A stretch of 64,000 bases of DNA from an uncultured Gammaproteobacteria bacterium (GTDB lineage Bacteria; Pseudomonadota; Gammaproteobacteria; DRLM01), in the NCBI GenBank assembly GCA_963729605.1, contig CAVSNY010000007.1:320001-384000 (forward strand). The letters run 5' to 3'. Of the stretch, positions 593-64,000 are shown one piece after another; the first letter of the stretch is position 1, and every line of letters starts with the position of its first letter. The translations under genes and the position numbers were made by a program. The notes under the pieces are model-generated. The model saw nothing but the letters and a program-made list of their open reading frames with translations, had not been told where the DNA came from and made no database searches.

Positions 593-2695
593 ATGAATCC
601 ACAAGCCCGTAAGCGGCTGCGCATCGCCGCTTGGTCGTTGGGCATCCTCGCGGTGCTGGCCATCGGCATCGTGCTGTGCGAATGGGTCGGCTGGCCTTTT
701 CTGAAGAACCCTTTGCAGAACAGCCTCGCGCAGCGGCTGCAACGGCCGGTCGAGTTCGGTGATGAATTCAGACTCAAGTTATTCGGTTCGATACGGCTCG
801 ACGCCAGCGCCTTGCGCATCGGCCCGCCGGCCGATCTTGCCGCGGATTCGCCGTTGGGCGGTGATCTGGTCAACGCGCGTAACGCCCACCTGGAGATTCC
901 GTATTCCACGGTCTGGCAGATCATTCGAAAACAGGATCGGCAACGGCCGCCACGGATCACGTCGTTGCGTTTTGACGAGATCGACGCGGCGCTCAAACGC
1001 ACGGCCGACGGCCGCGCGAATTGGGTATTCACGACACCCGCGCCGGAGGAGGCCAAACAGCCCGCATCGTTGCCGATCGTCGACGAACTGGTGGTCGAGC
1101 GCGGACGTCTGGTGTTCGATGATGCCATTCTCAAGATTGCGCTCGACGCCAAGGTCAGCACCCATGAAGGCGCGCGGGCGGGCGAGATGAATAAACAGCG
1201 TGGCCTGCTCGTCGAAGGCCGGGGCCAACGCGAAGAACAGCCCTTCGATTTCCGCGTTACGTCATCCGGCGTGTTGCCGCTGGCGGCGCGCGATGCCTCC
1301 AGCGTGGTGCCCATCACCATCCGCCTCAACAGCGGCGAGTCGAAGTTCGGTTTCGACGGCGCAGGCGCCGACCTGTTCAGCCTTCAAGCTATCGATGGCG
1401 AGGCGACGCTCGCCGGCCAATCGCTCGCCAAGGTGGGCGACGCGCTCGGTCTCACCCTGCCCACCACCGAGGCCTTCACGCTCAAGGGACGTTTGAGAAA
1501 ATCGGGTCAGGTCTGGACCCTCGAACAAGCCGACCTCGCCGTGGGCGACAGCCGGCTGGGCGGCGAATTCACGGTGGACCGCCGTCCCGCGGTGCCGCTG
1601 CTGACCGGTCAACTCACCGGCTCGCGGTTGGTGCTGGCGGATTTGCTGCCGGCCTTCGGGGCGGCGAGGCCGGGTACCGGTAATCCCAAGCCGCCGCCGG
1701 GGCAGGTGGTGCCCGAAAAAGAATTCGACATTCCCGCGCTGCACGCGATGAACGCGGACGTGAAAGTGCGCTTGCAGCGCGCCGAACTCGGCGATCTGTT
1801 TCGCCAGCCGTTGGCGCCGTTGGAAGGCGACCTCTCGCTCGATGCCGGCGTGCTGACATTGACCAATGTGCTCGCGCGCGCGGCCGGCGGCGAAGTTAAG
1901 GGAAAGCTGGGTCTGGACGGAACGCAGGAAAATCCGCTGTGGACGGTGGACCTGCGCTGGGCCGGCATCGAACTCGACCAGTGGCTGAGGCCGCGCAACG
2001 CGATGTCGCAATCGGATAAACCTTCCGGCGAGAAGCCGGGTTATATCTCGGGCAAGCTCGGCGGTCACGCGCAGCTCGAAGCGCGCGGCAAATCGACACA
2101 GCGGATGATTGGGTCGACCGACGGAACGGTCCAAGCGTGGGTGCGCGATGGAACGATTTCCCATCTGGTGATCGAGGCGGTCGGCATCGACATCGCTCAG
2201 GGTCTCGGCTTGCTGCTGGTCGGCGATGACGCGCTGCCGATGCACTGCGCGGTGGTGAAGGCCGATGCGAAGAACGGCACTTTTACACCGGAAGTCGCCC
2301 TCGTCGATACCCGTGATTCGACGGTGTTCATAGAGGGCAGCGTCTCTCTCGCCGACGAACGTTACGCGCTCAAGATGACTTCGAAACCGAAGGATATTTC
2401 GCCCGCAACTTTGCGTACGCCGGTGCGGATGGAAGGCAGTTTCGCAAAACCGGAACTCACGCTCGAGAAAAAACCGATCGCCGGCCGGGTGCTCGCCGCC
2501 GTGGCGCTCGCGGCGATTCATCCGCTGGCCGCGCTGATCCCGTTTTTCGATGTGGGAGACAAGGACGCGGTGGACGGCTGCCGAAATGCCTTGCAGCGGT
2601 TGCGCGATGCCGACGGACCCGCGACGGCGCGCGTCGAGCAGGCGCCCAAGCCCGCGGCCCGCCAAGAGACCGCACCCGCGCCGCCCGGCGAATAG
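593..2695 (+). CDS. AsmA family protein (YhjG-like)
   Basis: 700-aa ORF with N-terminal TM anchor, DGRANW motif and AsmA-type C-terminus (VDTRDSTVFIEGSVSL...LRTPVRMEGSFAKP). Confidence 0.85.
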   Translation: MNPQARKRLRIAAWSLGILAVLAIGIVLCEWVGWPFLKNPLQNSLAQRLQRPVEFGDEFRLKLFGSIRLDASALRIGPPADLAADSPLGGDLVNARNAHLEIPYSTVWQIIRKQDRQRPPRITSLRFDEIDAALKRTADGRANWVFTTPAPEEAKQPASLPIVDELVVERGRLVFDDAILKIALDAKVSTHEGARAGEMNKQRGLLVEGRGQREEQPFDFRVTSSGVLPLAARDASSVVPITIRLNSGESKFGFDGAGADLFSLQAIDGEATLAGQSLAKVGDALGLTLPTTEAFTLKGRLRKSGQVWTLEQADLAVGDSRLGGEFTVDRRPAVPLLTGQLTGSRLVLADLLPAFGAARPGTGNPKPPPGQVVPEKEFDIPALHAMNADVKVRLQRAELGDLFRQPLAPLEGDLSLDAGVLTLTNVLARAAGGEVKGKLGLDGTQENPLWTVDLRWAGIELDQWLRPRNAMSQSDKPSGEKPGYISGKLGGHAQLEARGKSTQRMIGSTDGTVQAWVRDGTISHLVIEAVGIDIAQGLGLLLVGDDALPMHCAVVKADAKNGTFTPEVALVDTRDSTVFIEGSVSLADERYALKMTSKPKDISPATLRTPVRMEGSFAKPELTLEKKPIAGRVLAAVALAAIHPLAALIPFFDVGDKDAVDGCRNALQRLRDADGPATARVEQAPKPAARQETAPAPPGE

Positions 2696-2837
2696 GTTCG
2701 ATGGATTGGAGCCGCACTTTGCTGTAGCGAGCGCCACGCTACGCACATGATGAGGTGGTTAAACCGGTCAAGACCGCTTGGAAAAATCGCCCGCCGTTGT
2801 CCGTGACAAGACGCGCAATCCCGGTTTTCGCGGACGG

Positions 2838-2978
2838 TTATTTCAATGGCGAACCGTGTTGATCACGCGATTTGCGGCGGTTGCGGCGGATCACTATGAA
2901 CACCGAGACGAGTGCGACGGCGAGGGTGAGCACGGCGACCACTTCGACGATGATGAAGATTGTGGGTATGGAGGACAT
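2838..2978 (-). CDS. small single-pass membrane protein
   Basis: 46 aa MSSIPTIFIIVEVVAVLTLAVALVSVFIVIRRNRRK: hydrophobic stretch then basic stop-transfer; AAGGA upstream. Confidence 0.45.
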   Translation of the reverse strand: MSSIPTIFIIVEVVAVLTLAVALVSVFIVIRRNRRKSRDQHGSPLK

Positions 2979-3154
2979 GGATTTCCTTGGTTGGCTTTCC
3001 TCGGCAGCAAGAGCTGAAAATATATCAATCTTATTAGTGGCGCCGCGCGCATCGACTGAAGCGGGTCGCAAATCGTGTGCGCGATCGCGCCCCTGCCTGC
3101 TTGGGTCGTATGAAACGCATGTCCACCGCTCCAATGATCGTAAGTGATATTGCT

Positions 3155-3379
3155 TTATTCCAGGCTCCACTTGATCTGGAACTCGATCTCCTCTTCGCTG
3201 CTGGACCTTTCGTGCTCGACAGTAAATTCGGCGCGGACCGGAACATGGATACGCTCCCCGGCAATTTGGATTTCAAAGCGCTCGCCATGTTCGATGGCAT
3301 CCGCCAAGCGGCGGAGCTTGGCCACGAACTCGGCTTTTGAATAAGCTTTTTCCACATCTCGCTTGCTGTTTGAAGGCAT
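3155..3379 (-). CDS. amphi-Trp domain-containing protein
   Basis: RDVEKAYSKAEFVAKLRRLADAIE...EEEIEFQIKW; start placed at ATG 3379 behind GGAGAGG. Confidence 0.85.
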   Translation of the reverse strand: MPSNSKRDVEKAYSKAEFVAKLRRLADAIEHGERFEIQIAGERIHVPVRAEFTVEHERSSSEEEIEFQIKWSLE

Positions 3380-3804
3380 CTTTTTACCTCTCCTAGAAAT
3401 TGTGGTCTCACGGTTTCTCGATAGTCGCCATGCCGCCGTCATTGCGTAAATTGCACAGGCGCCGGGGACTAGATTTTCGCATCATACTGCAAATCCATCC
3501 CCATTTGCCGCCGGTCGATTGTTCACCGCGCGTCCTCGTCGCCAAGTTGGTCCATCGGCGCCGCATTGAAAGTTGTACTGAGCACAACCTGGTTCAGGCA
3601 CCATTAAATCCCTTCTTTAAACGGGGAAAGGCTGGATTGAGATTAAGGGTCATCGTGATGCGAAAGGTTTGGCGCTTCTTCAGCGTCGCAACGGAATGAC
3701 CGGCGCGGCCGGCATGGCAAGCCGGCGATCCATGATCTATGCTTTTTTAAGGCTGATAGATTTACCGCATAACTCCCCCAGCAAAACTGTCTTGGAGAAA
3801 TCGC

Positions 3805-4329
3805 TTGCCTCCGGAAATGATTTTGCCGGCCCTGCTGGTTTTCCAAGGCGTCGTCGGCGGTGTCGATACGCTGGTTAATCACGAAATCATCGAGCGCTTG
3901 CCGCACCGCGTCGAAGCGCGCAACGAGATCGGCCTGCACTGGATACGCGAAACCATTTACGCGTGTTTGTTCGGCGGTTTGGCTTGGTTCGAATTTCATG
4001 GCGCCGCGGCGGTGTTCATCGTCGCGTTGCTGATCGGCGAAATCATCGTCACCGTATGCGACGAATACATAGAAAATCAGATCCGCGTCCTACCGCAGAA
4101 CGAACGGGTGCTGCACGTATTGCTCACTCTCAATTTAGGGCTGGTGATCGCCGTGCTGGTGCCGACCCTGATCGGTTGGGGCAGCTTGCCCACCGGATTG
4201 GCGCCGGTCGAATACGGATTGCTTTCCTGGATACTCAGCGGGTTCGCCTTGCTGGGCGTAGGCTGGGCAATACGCGATTTTATCGCCTGGCGAAAATTGC
4301 GGCGCTTGAGCGGCGCGAGCGCTGCGTGA
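3805..4329 (+). CDS. membrane protein resembling the N-terminal domain fused to some TIGR01777 epimerases
   Basis: 174 aa, several TM helices, GGVDTLVNHEIIERL and LPQNERVLH motifs. Confidence 0.6.
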   Translation: MPPEMILPALLVFQGVVGGVDTLVNHEIIERLPHRVEARNEIGLHWIRETIYACLFGGLAWFEFHGAAAVFIVALLIGEIIVTVCDEYIENQIRVLPQNERVLHVLLTLNLGLVIAVLVPTLIGWGSLPTGLAPVEYGLLSWILSGFALLGVGWAIRDFIAWRKLRRLSGASAA

Positions 4330-4483
4330 TGAAGTCAATACAAGAGACTGTCCAATTAAACGCAATACCTCTGCGATTCGGCAAGGGCTTTCGCGGTGCT
4401 TTAGGCAAGACTAGAGTGTAATGCGGGAGAGTCTATAGATACGCTTGTTTCCTCACTCAATCACTATTCCCAATTCAGAGCAG

Positions 4484-4555
4484 GTAGGATGCGGTGAGCA
4501 TCGCGATCCGCATCAATCGTGAACGGTGCGGTTCATTTCATTCACCGCATCCTAC
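4484..4555. repeat. GTAG-family REP pair (REPIN-like)
   Basis: GTAGGATGCGGTGA ... TCACCGCATCCTAC terminal inverted repeat with internal palindromes. Confidence 0.8.
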
Positions 4556-4562
4556 TTTTTCT

Positions 4563-5540
4563 TTACGACCAATGATGCAGAGCAACAGATTTCGGTTGTG
4601 CAAAGCGAAAGCTTCTTGAAATGCCGTCCCCTTCGAATCGCGACGTAGCGCTACCAAACACAACTTCTTCTGTCGTTGACCAGCCGTAAAGTATGGAACC
4701 ATACAAACCGGAATTGAGGCTATGTTTGGATTGCTCGTCTGTCTTGAGCCTGATTGTTGCTCTCGAAAATGGGTGGCTTTCCCCAAATGTGTAGATTGGT
4801 AGACGCGCCGCGGCTCGAACCGCATTGGCAAAGCATTCCGATTTCGTGCTCGCCTCAACTTCGGAAGAGGCGGCCATTCTCTCTATAAATTGAGCGAGAT
4901 CTCTTGAGCAATTTAGCAGAAGCAGAATTGCTTCCCAAACAAGGGTTGTTATAGAGAAAGTATCGTTCTGGGCATGGAACGTTCTGCTTGGGCAGACCAC
5001 TCCAGACTCGACTCCTTCAATAAAGTAACCGTGTAAGCACCCTTCCTTACCGGCTTTCGAATACTCCAAAGAGAACATTCGTATCCGAGCCTGCTGATGC
5101 TTTAGGTTATTTGCCGCAGCCGACAGAAAGCGCTTGTGCTCTTTAAGACGCTTGTCGAGTTGCCGATAGTATGGGCTCTTGTCCCGCAGTTGCTTCGACT
5201 TAAAGAATCCGGACGCAATTGCATATATGTCATCAACGTGCTCGGCCGCCGCGTATAGCGATAACTCGATATAGTCAATCACCTCCTCCATTAGCGCATT
5301 TTCTTTCTTCAGTAGATCAATTTTAGAAGAGGCCAAAAAGTAGGATTCCAACCTGCTGCACAAGCGAAATAGCTTATTGCATAGGCGCGACGTCGAAACG
5401 TTGTAAATTCCTATAGGCAGGCGAAGGTTGCTTGTTGTATGAAAACAGCGCTCGACATTTACTTTCAACAAGACAAGGTGCGCTTGAAGGCTGGATGGCG
5501 CTTCTTTCGTAAGATCGACTTCGTAGATTTCCTTGCTCAC
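4563..5540 (-). CDS. hypothetical cassette-type protein, possibly HEPN-like
   Basis: 325-aa AT-rich ORF, helical N-terminal half, ANNLKH motif; GTG start just downstream of GTTAGGG. Confidence 0.7.
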   Translation of the reverse strand: MSKEIYEVDLTKEAPSSLQAHLVLLKVNVERCFHTTSNLRLPIGIYNVSTSRLCNKLFRLCSRLESYFLASSKIDLLKKENALMEEVIDYIELSLYAAAEHVDDIYAIASGFFKSKQLRDKSPYYRQLDKRLKEHKRFLSAAANNLKHQQARIRMFSLEYSKAGKEGCLHGYFIEGVESGVVCPSRTFHAQNDTFSITTLVWEAILLLLNCSRDLAQFIERMAASSEVEASTKSECFANAVRAAARLPIYTFGESHPFSRATIRLKTDEQSKHSLNSGLYGSILYGWSTTEEVVFGSATSRFEGDGISRSFRFAQPKSVALHHWS

Positions 5541-5562
5541 GATTGAATCTTTTCCGAGCCCG

Positions 5563-5590
5563 CCCTAACTTAAAGTAGACATCCTAATTG
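5563..5590 (-). other. attI-like site (copy 4)
   Basis: minus strand AATTAGGATGTCTACTTTAA-GTTAGGG; 16/18 identical to GGGTGTCTACTTTGAGTT at the attI position near 62600. Confidence 0.65.
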
Positions 5591-5612
5591 AAATGGCTAA
5601 TAAGTAAAAATT

Positions 5613-5770
5613 GGGGTAGATTCATTTTATTATTTAGCCAATTACAAACTACTACGCATTTGACATAGCTTTTTGTGGCTTGCCGGGTGCGCACTTTTCA
5701 ATCCGCCTTCTTACTATTTCTTCCACCTTGTCTACGAAAGATGCTATCCAAAGGGATAAATAAATCTGTC
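5613..5770. mobile_element. non-autonomous element with GGGACAGATTTATTT-type inverted ends and a RAYT transposase C-terminal remnant
   Basis: ends ggggtagattcattt / aaataaatctgtc; minus strand translates FVDKVEEIVRRRIEKCAPGKPQK*; near-duplicate at 6845-6996. Confidence 0.65.
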
Positions 5771-5783
5771 TTGGTTTTCGAGG

Positions 5784-6707
5784 TCAAATAAGTTCCTCAT
5801 TGGGCTCCTTTGGTAAGCGGGCTAAATTTGCATTCAATGCATCTGCGTCGATTTGCGGCGCTGCGCCCGGCGCGTATTTCTGAGGCATTGCTGCAAACAT
5901 ATGAGGCGTTACGATACCAAGAAAAGCCTGCAAGTCTAGCCCATTGGATATAGCCGGAATAATCGGCGCGTCGCTATCGGCTGTTGTGCCGGTATAATAT
6001 CTTTGCCCGCCACCACCCTTATGGACCCCTGATTTTTTATGTCGCCAGGCGACGATACAGCGTGGACCAACGGAGTTGTTTGTGAGGCCGAGATGAACCT
6101 TGTAATTAAGAGTGGCAAGATAATCAGTAACTGCGGTTGCTGGGATTTTTAGATTGTCGTGCGCGCGGACTACGTGAAGTAATTCGCGAATCCACTTCTT
6201 GTCTTGCACTAAATAAGCTAAACCAGAGCCCCCGATGCTTAATCGTGGGGTTCGAGGTGATTGATTTGTCGTCGTGCCCACGATGTGACGTATGTAGCGA
6301 AAATTGTAAGTCTTTCGATTGGGCGCAAAAGCAATATCGATAGAGTAGAAACGTGGCTCATCGTTCATGAATGCTGGGATAAAGACGCTATGAGCAGGCT
6401 GGTTGGGTCCCACCATTCGCGATAGGTGCCGGGGAAACTGCTTTTGAAGAGCTGAGGCAAGCACGCCTAACGACTTCTCAAGCGGCAGCTTTCTACCTCG
6501 TAGTACCGCACTCATCCAGTCTGCGGGCTCGGTTCCTTTGGTAGTCGCGCCAAGCCCAGCATAGCCAAGAATGGCGACCCCATCGATTGTCTCTAGGAAC
6601 ATTAGCTTGCAAGCGTCGTCTTTGGGTGGACGACCAGGGTGGGATAGACGTCTATCGGCCAGCAGCCAGATCGTTTCTGGGCCATTAATCGTGAGTATGA
6701 GGGTCAC
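5784..6707 (-). CDS. Ntn-hydrolase / proteasome-beta-like hypothetical protein (cassette gene)
   Basis: 307 aa beginning M-T-LILT...ADRRLS...K...GYAG, later IGGSG; pattern of HslV/proteasome beta subunits. Confidence 0.6.
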   Translation of the reverse strand: MTLILTINGPETIWLLADRRLSHPGRPPKDDACKLMFLETIDGVAILGYAGLGATTKGTEPADWMSAVLRGRKLPLEKSLGVLASALQKQFPRHLSRMVGPNQPAHSVFIPAFMNDEPRFYSIDIAFAPNRKTYNFRYIRHIVGTTTNQSPRTPRLSIGGSGLAYLVQDKKWIRELLHVVRAHDNLKIPATAVTDYLATLNYKVHLGLTNNSVGPRCIVAWRHKKSGVHKGGGGQRYYTGTTADSDAPIIPAISNGLDLQAFLGIVTPHMFAAMPQKYAPGAAPQIDADALNANLARLPKEPNEELI

Positions 6708-6768
6708 TTCTAATCCCCGTATTTGAGCTGCATGCTTATTTTGAATTAATACTATTGCTATGTGTGCT

Positions 6769-6835
6769 GCCTAACGTGTATTAGACACCCTAATTTTTGC
6801 GTCTTTCTTTGCGCCAGGCTGGTGTGTAATTCTGT
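6769..6835 (-). other. attI-like site (copy 3)
   Basis: minus strand GAATTACACACCAGCCTGGCGCAAAGAAAGACGCAAAAATTAGGGTGTCTAATACAC-GTTAGGC. Confidence 0.7.
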
Positions 6836-6844
6836 ATAAAAATT

Positions 6845-6996
6845 GGGACAGATTTATTTTATTCTCTCGTCAATCACAAACTACTACGCATTTGGCGCAG
6901 CCTTTTGCGGACTGCCGGGGGCGCGCTCAATCCGTCTTCCTACTATTTCTTCTACTTGTCTACGAAAAGATCCTCTCCAAAGGGATAAATAAATCT
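6845..6996. mobile_element. second copy of the GGGACAGATTTATTT-bounded RAYT-remnant element
   Basis: gggacagatttattt ... aaataaatct; minus strand EIVGRRIERAPGSPQKAAPNA* (frameshifted relative to the first copy). Confidence 0.65.
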
Positions 6997-7016
6997 ATGG
7001 TTTTGCAGAACCATGC

Positions 7017-7046
7017 GGCGGAACGCCCTTTGGGCTTCCGCCCTAC
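7017..7046 (-). repeat. GTAG-family REP
   Basis: GTAGGGCGGAAGCCCAAAGGGCGTTCCGCC; near-identical copy at 63868-63896. Confidence 0.75.
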
Positions 7047-7048
7047 GA

Positions 7049-7082
7049 GCTTGCGGCACGTCGGCTGCATGGAAGGTTGAGC
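7049..7082 (-). other. left half of an attC site (truncated)
   Basis: minus strand GCTCAAC (RYYYAAC) CTTCCATGCAGCCGACGTGCCGCAAGC, then interrupted by the REP. Confidence 0.6.
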
Positions 7083-7110
7083 CGCTTGAAAAGATGCGCC
7101 CGCAAGCGGG

Positions 7111-7320
7111 TCATTTGCCGCCTGTCTTAAGAGGCGGGGTGCCCTCTTTGAAAATTCCTCGCAGCTGGTTGCGAAACTCGGGGCTGTCATCGTGCCCGTG
7201 CACGGCCATGGCGTGTTGCACGGCAGCCTCCAGGAGCTCTTCTTCGCTGTCGGCCGATATGGCGATCGTGCAATTCATTTCGCTTGGAAATTCACGGCAG
7301 TCTATGTATTTGCGAGCCAC
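7111..7320 (-). CDS. DUF1059 domain-containing protein (small putative metal-binding protein)
   Basis: ARKYIDCREFPSEMNCTIAISADSEEELLEAAVQHAMAVHGH; GTG start after GGAGG. Confidence 0.85.
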   Translation of the reverse strand: MARKYIDCREFPSEMNCTIAISADSEEELLEAAVQHAMAVHGHDDSPEFRNQLRGIFKEGTPPLKTGGK

Positions 7321-7398
7321 GATGACCTCCTTCAAACTGTGAATGAGTGCCGTTGGTTTGTGGGTTAGTTGCTGGGTTGCACCCAAGTCCACCGTAGC

Positions 7399-7476
7399 GC
7401 CTAAGTGTATTGGACCACCTAATTGGCGTCTTCTTTACGCCAGTGTGGTGCGTAATTCCAGCATCGTCAATATGGG
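7399..7476 (-). other. attI-like site (copy 2, core G missing)
   Basis: minus strand ...CTGGCGTAAAGAAGACGCCAATTAGGTGGTCCAATACAC-TTAGGC; about 70 bp nearly identical to 8331-8402. Confidence 0.6.
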
Positions 7477-7478
7477 AT

Positions 7479-7516
7479 AAATAAATCTGTCCCGATTTTG
7501 CCCTCAAGCGTTATGC
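7479..7516 (-). other. attC stub (GCATAAC GCTTGAG) fused to a GGGACAGATTTATTT end
   Basis: minus strand GCATAACGCTTGAGGGCAAAATCGGGACAGATTTATTT shortly after the stop of 7532..8308; GCATAAC is complementary (6/7) to the GTTATAC at that gene's start. Confidence 0.6.
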
Positions 7517-7531
7517 CGCTGGAAGGTAAGG

Positions 7532-8308
7532 CTAAAAGGGAATATCTTCATCGATGGTCTTGGGCGTTGGCTTCCTAAGCACAAACAGCGATTCGTTGTT
7601 CTCAACCCAACTCCACCCCGCGTCCGTAAGCCGCGCTGTGCTGTAGACGTGGTCTCGGTGTTCGTCCCATTCTTCTTTGACCTCAATGAGTTTCTTAGAC
7701 GCAAGGCGGCGGAAGGCGAGCGAAAATCCGATTGCTGTCAGCCCGGAGCGTTCTGAGTCTTCCTTGAGCGAGTAAACGGTCGCGGCGGCGCCAGGAAGTG
7801 CTGTGTCACCTGCAAGTATTGCGAGTACCATCAACTCAGTCTGGGTTAGACCTTGAGTCGGAGCTATCTGTTCAGACTCGGTGATCTGGCGCAGGGCCTC
7901 CGTCTTGTTCAGGAGGGCCTTTATACGCTCAGTCAAAGCCGCCTTCAGATTCTCGAAGTCGCTCGATGACTCAGGCTTGTAGTTGATAACCGTTCGGTGC
8001 TGAATGTGGAATGGATACCTCCCGGAGGTTCGTTCGTTGGAACATACCATCACTACCGGACGGCCCGATGCAAAAGCAAACCCCAGTTCGTACCAGACGT
8101 TCGGGTTATCGGTTGTGATGTCGGCAAGGCAGACTGCTGCGTTGCGGATACCTTGCTCAATGGCGTCGATCGGTACCTCTACCCCGGGATCGCGATCGAC
8201 CCGGTAAGCCTCAAGACCGGCCTCTTTAATAGAGGGGACATAGATGTCATCGAAGCGCTTGTCGAACTTCCCCGCGTCAAAGGGCTGGATCACGAAGCAA
8301 TTGGGCAT
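7532..8308 (-). CDS. nucleoside 2-deoxyribosyltransferase-like (TIR-like Rossmannoid) protein with probable C-terminal winged helix
   Basis: CFVIQPF...YRVD...ADITTDNPNVWYELGFAFASGRP...PFHIQHR; C-terminal LASKKLIE...ARLTDAGWSW. Confidence 0.8.
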   Translation of the reverse strand: MPNCFVIQPFDAGKFDKRFDDIYVPSIKEAGLEAYRVDRDPGVEVPIDAIEQGIRNAAVCLADITTDNPNVWYELGFAFASGRPVVMVCSNERTSGRYPFHIQHRTVINYKPESSSDFENLKAALTERIKALLNKTEALRQITESEQIAPTQGLTQTELMVLAILAGDTALPGAAATVYSLKEDSERSGLTAIGFSLAFRRLASKKLIEVKEEWDEHRDHVYSTARLTDAGWSWVENNESLFVLRKPTPKTIDEDIPF

Positions 8309-8323
8309 ACGAGTCTCACAAAG

Positions 8324-8402
8324 GTATAACGTGTATTAAACACCCTAATTGGCGTCTTCTTTACGCCAGTGTGGTGTGTAATTCCAGCATCGTCAATATG
8401 GG
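8324..8402 (-). other. attI-like site (copy 1)
   Basis: minus strand TTGACGATGCTGGAATTACACACCACACTGGCGTAAAGAAGACGCCAATTAGGGTGTTTAATACAC-GTTATAC, 15 bp before the ATG. Confidence 0.7.
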
Positions 8403-8523
8403 ACAAGGGTCGATAAGGAATTGCTAGTTTTATACGGCCCAATGAAAAAGTGTCACCACCTCGTTGCGCGGACCGTCCAAGTATCTTGATACCTCATACG
8501 CTTGCGGCGGGATGATTTATCAA

Positions 8524-8913
8524 TCATCCACCGCCAAAAATCACCCCGCTCAAATCCACGTCGCGGAGGTCGGCCATTTTGATGCCGGCTTCGTCGATGT
8601 GCGCGCCGGTGAGGTTGGCGCCGGCGAGTTTGGCGCCCAGCCATTTCGCGCCGCGTAAACGCGCGCCGCTCAAGTCGGCGCCGCTGAAGTTGGCGGCGTT
8701 CAAGTCGGCGCGTTCGAGATTGGCGCCTCGCAGGTTGGCCAGCCGCGCATCGGCGTCGCGCAGATTGGCGCCGCTGAGGTTGACGCCGCTGAGGTCGAGC
8801 TCGACCAGATTGGCGTCGAGGAATTCGACGCCGGACAGGTCGGCGCCATGCAGGCTGGTGCCGGCGTAACTCAGGAGCAGGATGAAGCCGCGGCGGTCGT
8901 AGATTTCGATCAT
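8524..8913 (-). CDS. pentapeptide repeat protein
   Basis: tandem A(D/N)LxG pentapeptides. Confidence 0.9.
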   Translation of the reverse strand: MIEIYDRRGFILLLSYAGTSLHGADLSGVEFLDANLVELDLSGVNLSGANLRDADARLANLRGANLERADLNAANFSGADLSGARLRGAKWLGAKLAGANLTGAHIDEAGIKMADLRDVDLSGVIFGGG

Positions 8914-8947
8914 GATGGTGATGGATTCTCTGAGGGGTGGGATGATT

Positions 8948-9823
8948 CTAAGCGTATTCGCCGATGAAGTTGAGATCGGTGTGGCCGCATTTGCGGCCGG
9001 CCAGACGGCAGGCGGTTTCCAGTGCCTCGGCGAGCGTCAGACGGCGGACGAGGGCGTCGATGATGCCGGCGTTGAAGGTGTCGCCCGCGCCCAGGGTGTC
9101 GACGACCCGCGGCGGTGGAAAGGCCGGGCTGTGGATTAATTGGCCCCCGCGACTGAGGGCCCAGGCGCCGGCCGCGCCCCAGGCCAGGACCAGGTCGGCC
9201 TGCGGCGCGCGGCGGTGCATGTCGTGTAGAAACCGCGCGGGTTCTCCGCCGGCTTGGGCTTGCACGTAGGCGCGGGAGAACAAGAGGAGGGTGGCCAGCG
9301 GGAAGAGTTGTTCGATGCCGGGACGCGGTTTTTCGATCTCCACCGAGCGCGGGGTTTGCGGGCGGGTGACGCGGGCCAGTTCGAGCATGCGGGCGGTGTC
9401 GGCGATGTTGCGGCCTTCGAAATGCAGCCAATCGAAGCCGGCGAGATCGACGGTTTGAAAATCTTCGTAGCGGTATTCCGGCAAATCGCGGTAGTGCACG
9501 ATGGTGCGCGAGCCGTTTTGTTGATTCAGCGTGATGTAGGAGGTGGGGACTTTGCCGTGGGCGAGGCGTCGCACCGGGCCGAGGTCGATGCCGAAGCCGT
9601 TCAAGTCGTCGGTGATGCGCGTGGCGTCGGACTCGTCGGCCAGCACGCCGCCCCAGGCACAGTCATGGCCGAGCTGGCTGAGCACCACCAGGCTGTTGGT
9701 GCAGTTGCCGCCGCGGCGCACGCGCTGCGCCAGGGCGCGCACCTCGGTGTCCTCCGGCGGGTAGGCGGCGACGGTGTTGATGATGTCGAGAGTGGCGATG
9801 CCGACGCCGAGGATGTGGGCCAT
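8948..9823 (-). CDS. PfkB family carbohydrate kinase (ketohexokinase-like)
   Basis: RRGGNCTNS, WLHFEGRN and DTLGAGDTFN motifs. Confidence 0.9.
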   Translation of the reverse strand: MAHILGVGIATLDIINTVAAYPPEDTEVRALAQRVRRGGNCTNSLVVLSQLGHDCAWGGVLADESDATRITDDLNGFGIDLGPVRRLAHGKVPTSYITLNQQNGSRTIVHYRDLPEYRYEDFQTVDLAGFDWLHFEGRNIADTARMLELARVTRPQTPRSVEIEKPRPGIEQLFPLATLLLFSRAYVQAQAGGEPARFLHDMHRRAPQADLVLAWGAAGAWALSRGGQLIHSPAFPPPRVVDTLGAGDTFNAGIIDALVRRLTLAEALETACRLAGRKCGHTDLNFIGEYA

Positions 9824-63226: not shown

Positions 63227-63871
63227 ATGGGTCTGTTTGGAAATATCACAAGTGCTTACAAGAAAAGCGAGGCGGCCGTTGTAGTTCAAAACCTTCTGGA
63301 ACATCAGGCACGCGTTGGTTTGCTCGATCTCGATCCAAAGGCTCTGGCTAATCGTCTAGTCAGCGTCCTCTGGGACCAGAAACCGGATCTCTTCGATGGA
63401 AAATTTGGGCAACGACCGCACAAGATCTCGGTAGCCGCCGCCGCACTTGCAGACGGAATTGGAAGGTTTGAGGCTCAAGACACCAATCGCGAAGCCCTGA
63501 TCCTCGCGCTGAGCAATGTGCTATCAGAAATCGAGACAAACGGGCGCCTTTATCCCTTTAACGGTATCGACGAAATATTGCTCGAGGCCGCTGGTGCAAT
63601 TTTTGTGGCAATGACGGAGGAACTCCGCGGACGATCTGGTAACACCACGCCGCCGTCGGCATACGCTACATTCGAAGATTGGTATGCCGAATTCAAGATT
63701 GGCGCTGGAAAAGCCAACCCTGCTCTGCGGGAAGCAGATGGTTCGAGCTTAATAGACTTCATGGATCACGAGCCGTTGCGGCGCGCATTTCGCGATCGCG
63801 TCGAACCGCGCTCCCTCGGCACGGAATTCGCGAAGTCTTTCGACATTCGCAAATTCGGCAAGCAAACGTAG
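63227..63871 (+). CDS. integron cassette 2, hypothetical protein
   Basis: 214-aa ORF directly after attC with GGAGAGG RBS. Confidence 0.8.
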   Translation: MGLFGNITSAYKKSEAAVVVQNLLEHQARVGLLDLDPKALANRLVSVLWDQKPDLFDGKFGQRPHKISVAAAALADGIGRFEAQDTNREALILALSNVLSEIETNGRLYPFNGIDEILLEAAGAIFVAMTEELRGRSGNTTPPSAYATFEDWYAEFKIGAGKANPALREADGSSLIDFMDHEPLRRAFRDRVEPRSLGTEFAKSFDIRKFGKQT

Positions 63872-63896
63872 GGCGGAAGCCCAACGGGCGTTCCGC
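63868..63896 (+). repeat. GTAG-family REP
   Basis: GTAGGGCGGAAGCCCAACGGGCGTTCCGC; same family as 7017-7046. Confidence 0.75.
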
Positions 63897-64000
63897 AGGA
63901 TGTTTGCCGCGGCTCAACACCCCCGCTCACCACCGATCATGTCCGCCGAAACATATCCGCCCCAATTAGCCGGATAAACGCCGCGTCTCACCCAGTAAGC

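Follow-up and report, generated by a model that had tools for sequence, protein, structure and literature searches.

Decaying miniature TIRtrons as probable passengers of integrase-less attI-like modules in an uncultured gammaproteobacterium

Introduction

How does one short repeated element come to lie, several times over and always facing the same way, where the integrase gene of an integron should be? The question is raised by a 64,000-nt stretch of an uncultured gammaproteobacterium (contig CAVSNY010000007.1 of assembly GCA_963729605.1; here G000:C7:320001-384000), which we call the window and whose own coordinates bear the prefix w where confusion could arise. In this window, two near-duplicates of ~170 bp with inverted ends, each carrying the debris of a transposase gene, stand in a row of small genes that are preceded by attI-like repeats. 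A first-pass annotation, made from the letters of the window, had read the debris as the remnant of a REP-associated tyrosine transposase (RAYT; REP, repetitive extragenic palindrome) and had proposed that such an enzyme excises or copies attI-gene modules and strings them together. Our follow-up leads to another account. With a probability of roughly 80%, the elements are miniature TIRtrons in decay. A TIRYT transposase would formerly have moved them in trans, and today they would be carried along as passengers by attI-like modules that have no integrase and recombine with one another through repeats of their own.

TIRtrons, as characterized in passages of Di Nocera, De Gregorio and Rocco (2013; PMC3733652), are tyrosine-transposase genes lying between long terminal inverted repeats (TIRs), many of which share GGGGWSAS, and they occur together with TIR families of moderate abundance, whose members are single, paired as dimers or grouped in clusters. 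The corresponding passages of Quentin et al. (2018; PMC6006769) describe TnpA-Y1 subclass 2.1 as the second largest Y1 transposase-like subclass, present in 14.9% of strains, with a median length of 238 aa, the motifs NHVH, WE and YIELNP, no REPs nearby, and a C-terminal helix-turn-helix (HTH)-like extension whose likeness is to Bac_DnaA_C, HTH_23 or HTH_28; they add that the equation of subclass 2.1 with TIRYT needs further analyses. TIRYT/TIRtron, TnpA-Y1 subclass 2.1 and Bertels group 1 RAYT are used below as equivalent names of the parent family.

Results

The two near-duplicates occupy w5606-5779 and w6838-7003, both on the minus strand, and are real: a repeat search paired them in three blocks (5605-5695 with 6837-6927, 81% over 91 nt; 5698-5726 with 6927-6955, 90%; 5737-5767 with 6966-6996, 94%), and blastn aligned copy 1 to copy 2 at 83% over 151 nt. 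The inverted ends that had been noted are likewise present, and at ~22 nt (AAAAATTGGGACAGATTTATTT / AAATAAATCTGTCCCGATTTT) they are longer than first described; in each copy, one end is good and the other has decayed. Scored against a 15-nt core motif, GGGACAGATTTATTT, the decayed TIRs of copy 1 show three mismatches at 5613-5627 (3' TIR, 5606-5630) and two at 5758-5772 (5' TIR, 5755-5779). Copy 2 has an intact 3' TIR (6838-6862) with the exact motif at 6845-6859; its opposite end reads AAATAAATCT followed by ATGG, the GGGAC of this 5' TIR (6978-7003, minus strand) having been replaced (AAAACCATAGATTTATTT). A third end, at 7479-7493, matches the motif exactly, as had been reported, and belongs to a solo 5' TIR plus ATCCC (7479..7499, minus strand). 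This solo end and the arm at 6839-6859 form the best pair in the window (95% complementary) and bound a composite of 661 bp (w6839-7499).

The motif is clearly over-represented. At three or fewer mismatches it occurs 6 times in the window versus 0.92 expected, a count reached in 0 of 100 shuffles, and at two or fewer mismatches it occurs 22 times in the genome versus once for a reversed control pattern. The window matches at w27925 and w57321 look like chance, as do near-matches in GC-rich sequence at C2:361912, C7:444662, C6:335833 and C7:557933. A GGGACA at 8400 had also been taken for the stub of an element end. The letters are there (8400-8405); however, since the same columns read GGCGCA and GGATCA in the paralogous 110-nt repeats at C7:1213008 and C7:1031848, they belong to the native sequence of the repeat and not to an element.

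The peptides that had been read on the minus strand were found in both copies: FVDKVEEIVRRRIEKCAPGKPQKAMSNA and a stop at 5655..5738 in copy 1, where the stop lies five residues beyond the one originally marked, and EEIVGRRIERAPGSPQKAAPNA and a stop at 6887..6952 in copy 2, frame-shifted with respect to the upstream FVDK part. Inside copy 1, the order is 5' TIR, deletion junction, the last ~29 TIRYT codons, a 3' untranslated stretch and 3' TIR. Most copies in the genome translate on this strand as FVDKVEEIV(G/R)RRIEK.APG.PQK... and a stop, several with broken frames, and an intact remnant of 43 aa was available from the copy at C7:1063766 (L021:1489-1617). At E<=1 (17 candidates), this remnant matched a single protein, P0001, with 88% identity and an E-value of 5.4e-4 against 5.8e9 sequences; the match lies at the C-terminus of P0001 (...GSFVDKVEEIVGRRIEKRAPGRPPK...), a 237-aa protein that belongs to PF01797 (54.8 bits) and carries NHVH, WE and YIELNP. 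When a hidden Markov model (HMM) of eight full-length relatives was run against 84,645 six-frame open reading frames (ORFs), two relics ranked 2nd and 6th, both at model positions 205-229, with E-values of 0.0072 and 0.26, the latter being window copy 1. At the nucleotide level, the interiors of the elements match the 3' end of locus L159's TIRYT gene with 78-80% identity over stretches of 41-53 nt (copy 1, 78% over 41 nt; copy 2, 79% over 53 nt). By all these similarities, the minus-strand peptide is the C-terminal relic of a Y1/HUH transposase of the RAYT superfamily (PF01797).

The name RAYT is therefore right at the level of the superfamily, to which the 88% identity with P0001 ties the relic, but the relic comes from the TIR-flanked TIRYT branch and not from a classical REP-associated RAYT. 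The TIRYT clade scores 63.6-78.4 bits on NF047646 (NCBIfam REP_Tyr_transpos), just below the 80-bit cut-off, which makes TIRYT (subclass 2.1) the more precise term. Full-length relatives (P0001, L106, L108 and L043) carry the motifs of subclass 2.1; no HTH family in Pfam matched four such relatives at E<=10. Of a full-length Y1/HUH gene, the window copies hold the last ~29 codons alone. Being without a transposase gene, they are non-autonomous derivatives of the TIRYT/TIRtron family, which has already been described.

An exact 18-mer scan of genome contigs with the TIR gave at least 121 stretches, complete elements among them. In a Planctomycetota metagenome-assembled genome (L106), for example, the order is TIR, a 231-aa Y1_Tnp gene (52.4 bits), TIR, over 756 bp, with the stop codon inside the TIR. 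Among the 18-mer matches listed, many were short TIR dimers of 33-155 nt, and the TIR was common to several phyla; 41 of the 129 motif instances among them were set aside as coding, being without an A-rich flank and often in RDRFILS frames. The relatives' TIR reads GGGGACAG and matches GGGGWSAS at 8/8 positions; the window has T/CGGGACAG, and its TIRs (TGGGACAG and CGGGACAG) match that TIRtron consensus at 7/8. At 70 of 78 loci of P0001 relatives (62-76% identity), GGGACAGATTTATTT lies upstream and AAATAAATCTGTCCC downstream of the gene, allowing three or fewer mismatches and a spacing of 600-1300 nt. In the control, loci of relatives of the RAYT that resides in the present genome, 2 of 80 had any TIR match, both inside the gene. 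These counts identify the end motif as the cognate flank of the TIRYT enzyme clade. They also bear on the pending equation in the passages of Quentin et al., a single clade having one and the same pair at 70 of its 78 loci. The present genome itself yielded one gene in a PF01797 search, the 186-aa RAYT, and tblastn with the 231-aa protein found no full TIRYT copy in it.

Three further features of the TIR were seen in relatives. The outer letters co-vary between lineages (AAAAG/CTTTT, AAACC/GGTTT, AAATA/TATTT), which fits, without proving, a pairing of the two ends in single-stranded DNA. At a number of TIRYT loci (L208, L190, L228, L161, L159 and others), the upstream TIR, or its outer ~13 nt, is present in 2-6 tandem copies spaced by 24-40 nt, and the downstream TIR is mostly single; this asymmetry may record repeated one-ended events. 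Exact 15-mer TIRs number 56 in G016 and 38 in G014, both of them gammaproteobacterial genomes, mostly as close inverted pairs, and this abundance is a REP-like proliferation of the TIRYT end.

The assembly, which is 94.5% complete in 7 contigs, holds ~11 loci of the element according to blastn and a family-wide search. Seven are full or internally deleted copies (C7:325606, 326838, 409349, 409808, 1033306, 1063766 and 1212064), others are partial or solo ends (C7:327479, C7:1210540 and C5:232671), and one is a TIR dimer of 57 bp (C7:699-755). Outside this genome, G002, which belongs to the same genus, has two copies, and G008 gave a weak match. Nine copies, seven from this genome and two from G002, align end to end with one internal junction at a mean column identity of 77%, and their flanks are all different. 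Because the junction is shared and the flanks differ, the unit appears to have arisen once and then been copied. The copies now differ by 12-23%, some with internal deletions. With lengths of 152-175 bp, TIRs of ~22 nt, a broken 29-codon relic as sole coding content, and several copies of one internal structure in differing flanks, they have the make-up of MITEs (miniature inverted-repeat transposable elements), and we call them mini-TIRtrons. No direct repeat flanks any copy, and a target duplication is not expected of Y1 elements (IS200/IS605). No shared target motif was found in the copy flanks, and neither the TIR nor a palindrome described below (type I) occurs at the contig ends of the assembly.

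The copy at C7:1033306 provides a relative date. In its G001 ortholog (L320, G001:C12, first 140 nt), the last ~20 nt of the TIR are kept, with unrelated sequence upstream. The insertion is therefore older than the split of G000 and G001, and the breakpoint falls within the TIR. Solo TIRs stand exactly at rearrangement breakpoints at w7479, at C5:230005 and in this ortholog, which hints either at recombinogenic ends or at a preference of the element for such regions.

The window copies lie in a low-GC stretch (~4,560-8,440; 45-55% versus ~61% for the genome) that contains four co-oriented genes on the minus strand, each preceded on that strand by a repeat of 60-110 nt ending in GTTATAC, CTTAGGC, GTTAGGC or GTTAGGG. 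The cassette-like genes are, in their order of reading, gene 1 (7532..8308; 258 aa, weak Nuc_deoxyrib_tr match below the cut-off), gene 2 (7111..7392 as listed, with a real start probably further in; DUF1059), gene 3 (5784..6707; 307 aa) and gene 4 (4563..5540; 325 aa), the latter two without a Pfam family. The repeats resemble the sequence between an intI fragment elsewhere on the contig and the first gene downstream of it, which ends ...GACGCCTTATAAGGCGTTAATTAGGATGTCTACTTTAAGTTAGGC. From that sequence, a second copy of it at C7:406104 and five repeats a profile was built, which found 15 sites in the genome at E<=0.0013. Those of variant A carry the start of the adjoining intI frame (C7:412056, 406104, 1211837 and 325563; C5:232503 and 230005; C4:27190; C2:532), and those of variant B are at C7:328323, 327401, 326769, 1213008, 1031848 and 60137 and at C3:81520. 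Since several variant A copies keep the first intI codons, the integron platform itself was evidently multiplied and truncated. "AttI-like" seems a reasonable label for these putative sites. No intI in the genome scored above the 265-bit cut-off of TIGR02249. The only fragments, at C7:412215-412467 and thus outside the window, cover positions 1-45 and 94-135 of that model with a stop between them.

All four sites of the window lie on the minus strand. Site a (8323..8440, variant B) has native upstream sequence, which is conserved in G001, and no element. Site b (7401..7459, variant B) is truncated upstream by the solo TIR, to which it is joined directly; site c (6769..6832, variant B; ending in GTTAGGC at 6768-6774) is truncated by copy 2; and site d (5563..5612; E 0.0013), of variant A and derived by deletion from the platform next to intI, is truncated by copy 1. 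The first-pass statement that an end motif precedes every attI-like site thus holds for b, c and d but fails for a. Folded as single-stranded DNA, the sites gave z-scores of -2.1, -1.5, -0.6 and -0.25, and an Rfam scan of 2500-9500 returned no match at E<=1.

Between the DUF1059 gene and copy 2 lies a GTAG-headed palindrome that is REP- or attC-like (7005..7084, minus strand). This type I palindrome, GCTCGTAGGGCGGAAGCCCAAAGGGCGTTCCGCCGCATGG, of 40 nt, has 12 copies in the genome, including those at 7005-7084 and 63867-63905 of the window, and occurs in three of the three other genomes of the genus and in two more of the family (up to 13 in G003). Five copies form inverted doublets of ~130 nt, and at two places, C7:1210506 and C5:230005, palindrome and MITE are nested. 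As a family, it belongs either with REPs/REPINs or with attC sites. A different palindromic site, outside the window at C7:402200-402510, ends in GTTAGAC at the far end of the cassette array beside the intI fragments, and we take it to resemble the classical attC of aadA cassettes. Bordering the array of the window, with site a directly after it, is a pentapeptide-repeat gene (w8524-8913), which accounts for a 15-nt periodic repeat.

Five of the 11 element loci (w5606, w6838, w7479, C7:1212064 and C5:232671) lie within 170 nt of an attI-like site, on its intI side, and in all five the relic reads toward the site, in one orientation. The title of the first-pass annotation, that the element sits where intI should be, was therefore apt. 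Considering that 15 stretches of 170 nt amount to ~7e-4 of the genome, the association is not due to chance, with the proviso that kinship between the copies inflates any formal test. The platform junctions of the five loci differ, which argues that the units were not simply copied as one block. Two more loci abut the type I palindrome, C7:1063766 on both sides and C7:1210540, and the palindrome also adjoins w6838.

A position next to integron parts was also looked for elsewhere. Among nine other genomes with the TIR or TIRYT that were checked by hand, the element was never beside intI or on the cassette side, its position relative to intI in one of them being impossible to place. In G012, G013, G015 and G019 there was no match above the intI cut-off; the nearest TIRs to intI lay more than 170 kb away in G014 and more than 2 Mb away in G017; and in G018 and G020 TIRs and intI were on different contigs, G018 having a TIR-rich island of 6 kb in which several TIRYT genes occur but nothing with an attC-like signature. 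One intI of G016 had three TIR dimers on its contig, 6.8-15.8 kb past its 3' end and thus on the side opposite to that of cassettes. G021, searched for intI only, had none above the cut-off. A contig of Pseudomonas cedrina (L050/L051), from a genome without an intI above the cut-off, has three TIR units in direct orientation at a spacing of 608-667 nt, two of them dimers of ~83 nt and the third with a partner 828 nt away, in a layout like that of a cassette array.

Evidence on how the array changes came from Logan contigs of four metagenome runs in three studies. In these, w6795 is joined to w8357 and 1561 nt are skipped. The absent segment (6796..8356) takes in the first two genes with site b and the solo TIR, as well as copy 2 and the type I palindrome beside it; gene 3 and MITE copy 1 are kept. 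No other structural polymorphism was seen. Since two modules are skipped in the contigs of four runs, the array is polymorphic in nature. The joint lies inside the attI-like repeats c and a, with eight intervening letters that restore a hairpin of the a type, and no joint at the TIR ends 6838 or 7499 was seen in the contigs of the four runs. These results indicate that modules are gained and lost through the attI-like repeats and not through the TIRs. The difference may stem from an insertion in the window or from a deletion in these relatives, and either site-specific or homologous recombination may have produced it. Parts of 7119-8295 were without cover in the four runs, an observation used only together with the contig joints. 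Joints that go back on themselves, or that run from 5742 to 6838 or from 5739 to 7011, were attributed to other MITE copies that fit both window copies and were not counted as rearrangements. Finally, across the family's 12 genomes the 661-bp composite was found once only, and no duplication flanks it.

Discussion

Taken together, these results favor decaying miniature TIRtrons carried passively by attI-like modules, and the course of events can be sketched as follows. The parent would have been a TIRtron of ~750-800 bp with one TIRYT gene (Y1/HUH, TnpA-Y1 subclass 2.1) between TIRs of ~22 nt. A single internal deletion would have removed the gene except for its last ~29 codons, and the resulting unit of ~170 bp would have been copied to ~11 places by TIRYT acting in trans; the enzyme would since have gone from the assembly, leaving the copies to decay. 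If it worked as its enzyme family suggests, it would have bound both ends, probably stem-paired in single-stranded DNA, and would have cut and rejoined them via a 5'-phosphotyrosine link. The copies lie inside degenerate, integrase-less platforms on the intI side of attI-like sites, their ends marking the points at which the platforms are truncated. Tandem modules, each an attI-like site plus a gene, would come and go as the attI-like repeats recombine with one another, and the MITEs would ride along.

Several points weigh against this account. The tight placement in one orientation, with differing junctions, is not explained by a pure passenger model, which leaves the local affinity of the element for integron platforms unaccounted for. 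For the copy at C7:1033306, no empty site was found, G002 and G003 matching further in only and the G001 ortholog keeping a solo TIR, so that both the exact ends of the element and its lack of a target duplication rest on inference. The E-value of the window remnant itself is weak (0.26), the strong protein match belonging to a paralog that lies elsewhere in the genome. As the assembly is 94.5% complete, the missing part may harbor a TIRYT gene. Metagenome contigs show presence, not absence, and a rarer rearrangement bounded by TIRs could have been missed. Among the papers listed by a full-text search for "TIRYT", no biochemistry of these enzymes turned up.

Compared with known systems, the parent is like TIRYT in its length (~230-238 aa), in the motifs NH(V/I)H, WE and Y(I/V)ELNP, and in the position of the gene between long GGGGWSAS TIRs, and here, as in TIRtrons, TIR copies are also solo, dimeric and clustered. 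Unlike a TIRtron, the window has no gene and holds a 170-bp internal-deletion derivative that keeps 29 codons. The main-text passages of PMC3733652 and PMC6006769 mention neither a gene-relic MITE nor a link to integrons, and the supplements of these papers may list this TIR. Full-text searching found the TIR string, in either orientation, in no paper, and no link between integrons and RAYTs appeared in titles or abstracts among the matches listed. As in the REPINs of Bertels and Rainey (2011), whose presumed movement in trans is ascribed to a Y1 enzyme, two inverted copies of an enzyme's flank and a short spacer make up a non-autonomous unit. Unlike REPINs, the mini-TIRtrons have no GTAG in the TIR as a head, no self-folding REP hairpin in each arm and a low copy number; their cognate enzyme is absent from the genome, and their TIR is the one shared by several phyla among the matches listed. 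REP families are mostly lineage-specific.

With IS200/IS605 elements (IS608, ISDra2), the parent family of the mini-TIRtrons shares a Y1/HUH catalytic core, and the copies share the lack of a visible target duplication; they differ in having true inverted ends instead of subterminal hairpins. The core of IS200/IS605 measures about 150 aa. Their relatives score 18.9-25 bits on NF033573 (IS200/IS605) versus a cut-off of 55 bits. The tyrosine motif differs as well, being Y---NP here (YIELNP) and Y---Q in IS200/IS605 according to passages of PMC6006769. Like the MITE-integron-MITE units and the Integron Mobilization Unit of class 1 integrons, which passages of PMC3575428 report as moved by a transposase in trans, the present elements are transposase-less, have inverted repeats and stand at the edges of integron parts in a host without the enzyme. 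Those units, in the same passages, flank a whole integron and make target duplications, in contrast to the Y1-type relic found here, which lies inside the platform in place of intI, with no duplication and no evidence of mobility as a unit.

Among the other explanations, one would make the association with integron parts a property of the element, which would insert preferentially and in one orientation on the intI-proximal side of attI-like sites and beside GTAG/attC-like palindromes, knock out intI, and promote adjacent deletions from its ends, giving the nested truncations. The IS1111-attC group (DEDD transposase with guide RNA) and the group IIC-attC introns (retrohoming) are mobile elements of demonstrated target specificity that lie, likewise in one orientation, at integron recombination sites; their enzymology is other, and the specificity seen here is a local statistical association only. 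The placement of the five loci, solo TIR included, their junctions before GGAATTAC, ATATTGACG, TTATTAGCC and GGCCGAGCT and 50 nt before the intI start, the two loci that adjoin type I palindromes, and the solo TIRs at breakpoints all speak for such a preference. However, the flanks have no common target motif or duplication, neither of the two G002 copies lies beside an attI-like core, metagenome contigs hold several further flanks that are not attI-like, the nine other genomes showed no such adjacency, and cassette arrays may just tolerate insertions. Insertion into hairpin loops found no support either, as the joined 35+35-nt flanks of eight copies folded no better than 1500 random genome sites, with 0 of 8 in the lowest 5% (a rough test, the controls being GC-rich). 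We consider a target preference unlikely. We are much more skeptical of the mechanism first proposed for this locus, in which a RAYT-type enzyme would cut out or copy TIR-bounded attI-gene modules and concatenate them in place of capture by an integrase. In its favor, the TIRs of the composite at w6839-7499 enclose the interior of a MITE, the DUF1059 gene with site b, and a type I palindrome, modules 2 to 4 each start with a TIR or MITE, and the class 1 units described in passages of PMC3575428 set a precedent for mobilization in trans. Yet the composite is single and without flanking duplication, the polymorphic joint lies in attI-like repeats, the assembly has no TIRYT gene, the TIRs of the other modules face outward and not inward, no TIR whatever accompanies site a of the first module, and the nine other genomes lack the linkage, so that this mechanism is very improbable.

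Another candidate for the enzyme is the genome's own single-copy RAYT (186 aa; C7:5-565), which would service the elements as if they were REPINs. It is a bona fide RAYT (203 bits on NF047646), a TIR dimer (C7:699-755) lies 134 nt downstream of its gene, and some TIR-flanked genes fall in subclass 2.2 in passages of PMC6006769. Against it, its relatives have a TIR-like match at 2 of 80 loci, both inside the gene, versus 70 of 78 in the TIRYT clade, the remnant shows no relation to its C-terminus, its identity with TIRYT is 22.7% over 119 residues, and the palindrome immediately downstream of it is of a GTAG type that occurs once in the genome. We give this possibility hardly any credence. The region itself (L009, G000:C7:1-1915; 5-565 and 692-790) has the RAYT at the very start of C7, followed by the unique GTAG palindrome, the 57-bp TIR dimer and two tandem GTCCCGTTTTCTC units. 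It is equally hard to credit that the units were co-opted as parts of the cassettes, be it as a promoter, as a terminator or insulator hairpin, or as the missing half of a foldable recombination site. Their constant position and orientation between the 3' end of a gene and the next attI-like site would agree with a function, as would the retention of MITE copy 1 in all four metagenome populations. On the other side, shuffled sequences fold as well as the 166-nt unit does (z -0.75), the unit has no Rfam match, the copies diverge by 12-23% with internal deletions, and site a works without a unit. Promoter donation by the MITE was discarded, as 4400-8600 contains 0 promoter-like sites versus 4.5 expected.

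A more far-reaching view, which we hold to be doubtful, would turn the TIRYT-derived elements into orientation-specific parasites of integron platforms that insert on the intI side of attI and destroy the integrase, their ends driving nested deletions, and the leftover TIR-attI-gene modules multiplying and shuffling by recombination of one attI-like site with another. If it were true, it would explain 15 attI-like sites without an intact intI, and it would link a single-strand HUH element mechanistically to the single-strand-dependent integron system, both acting on folded or single-stranded sites.

If the elements are instead decaying mini-TIRtrons that ride as passengers, their meaning for the enzyme family lies in the spread of a 170-bp derivative that has kept its ends and has differing flanks. 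This spread would be direct genomic evidence that what the enzyme acts on in trans is the pair of TIRs. It would also be direct genomic evidence that an internal deletion in such a gene can turn its flanks into a repeat family of the REP/REPIN kind. For an enzyme family that is unstudied, the linkage at 70 of 78 loci defines AAAAG-GGGACAGATTTATTT as a candidate substrate. As for the bacterium, its attI-like modules without an integrase, and the gain or loss of two of them at the level of strains, bear on how cassette arrays may persist and rearrange when no integrase is present.

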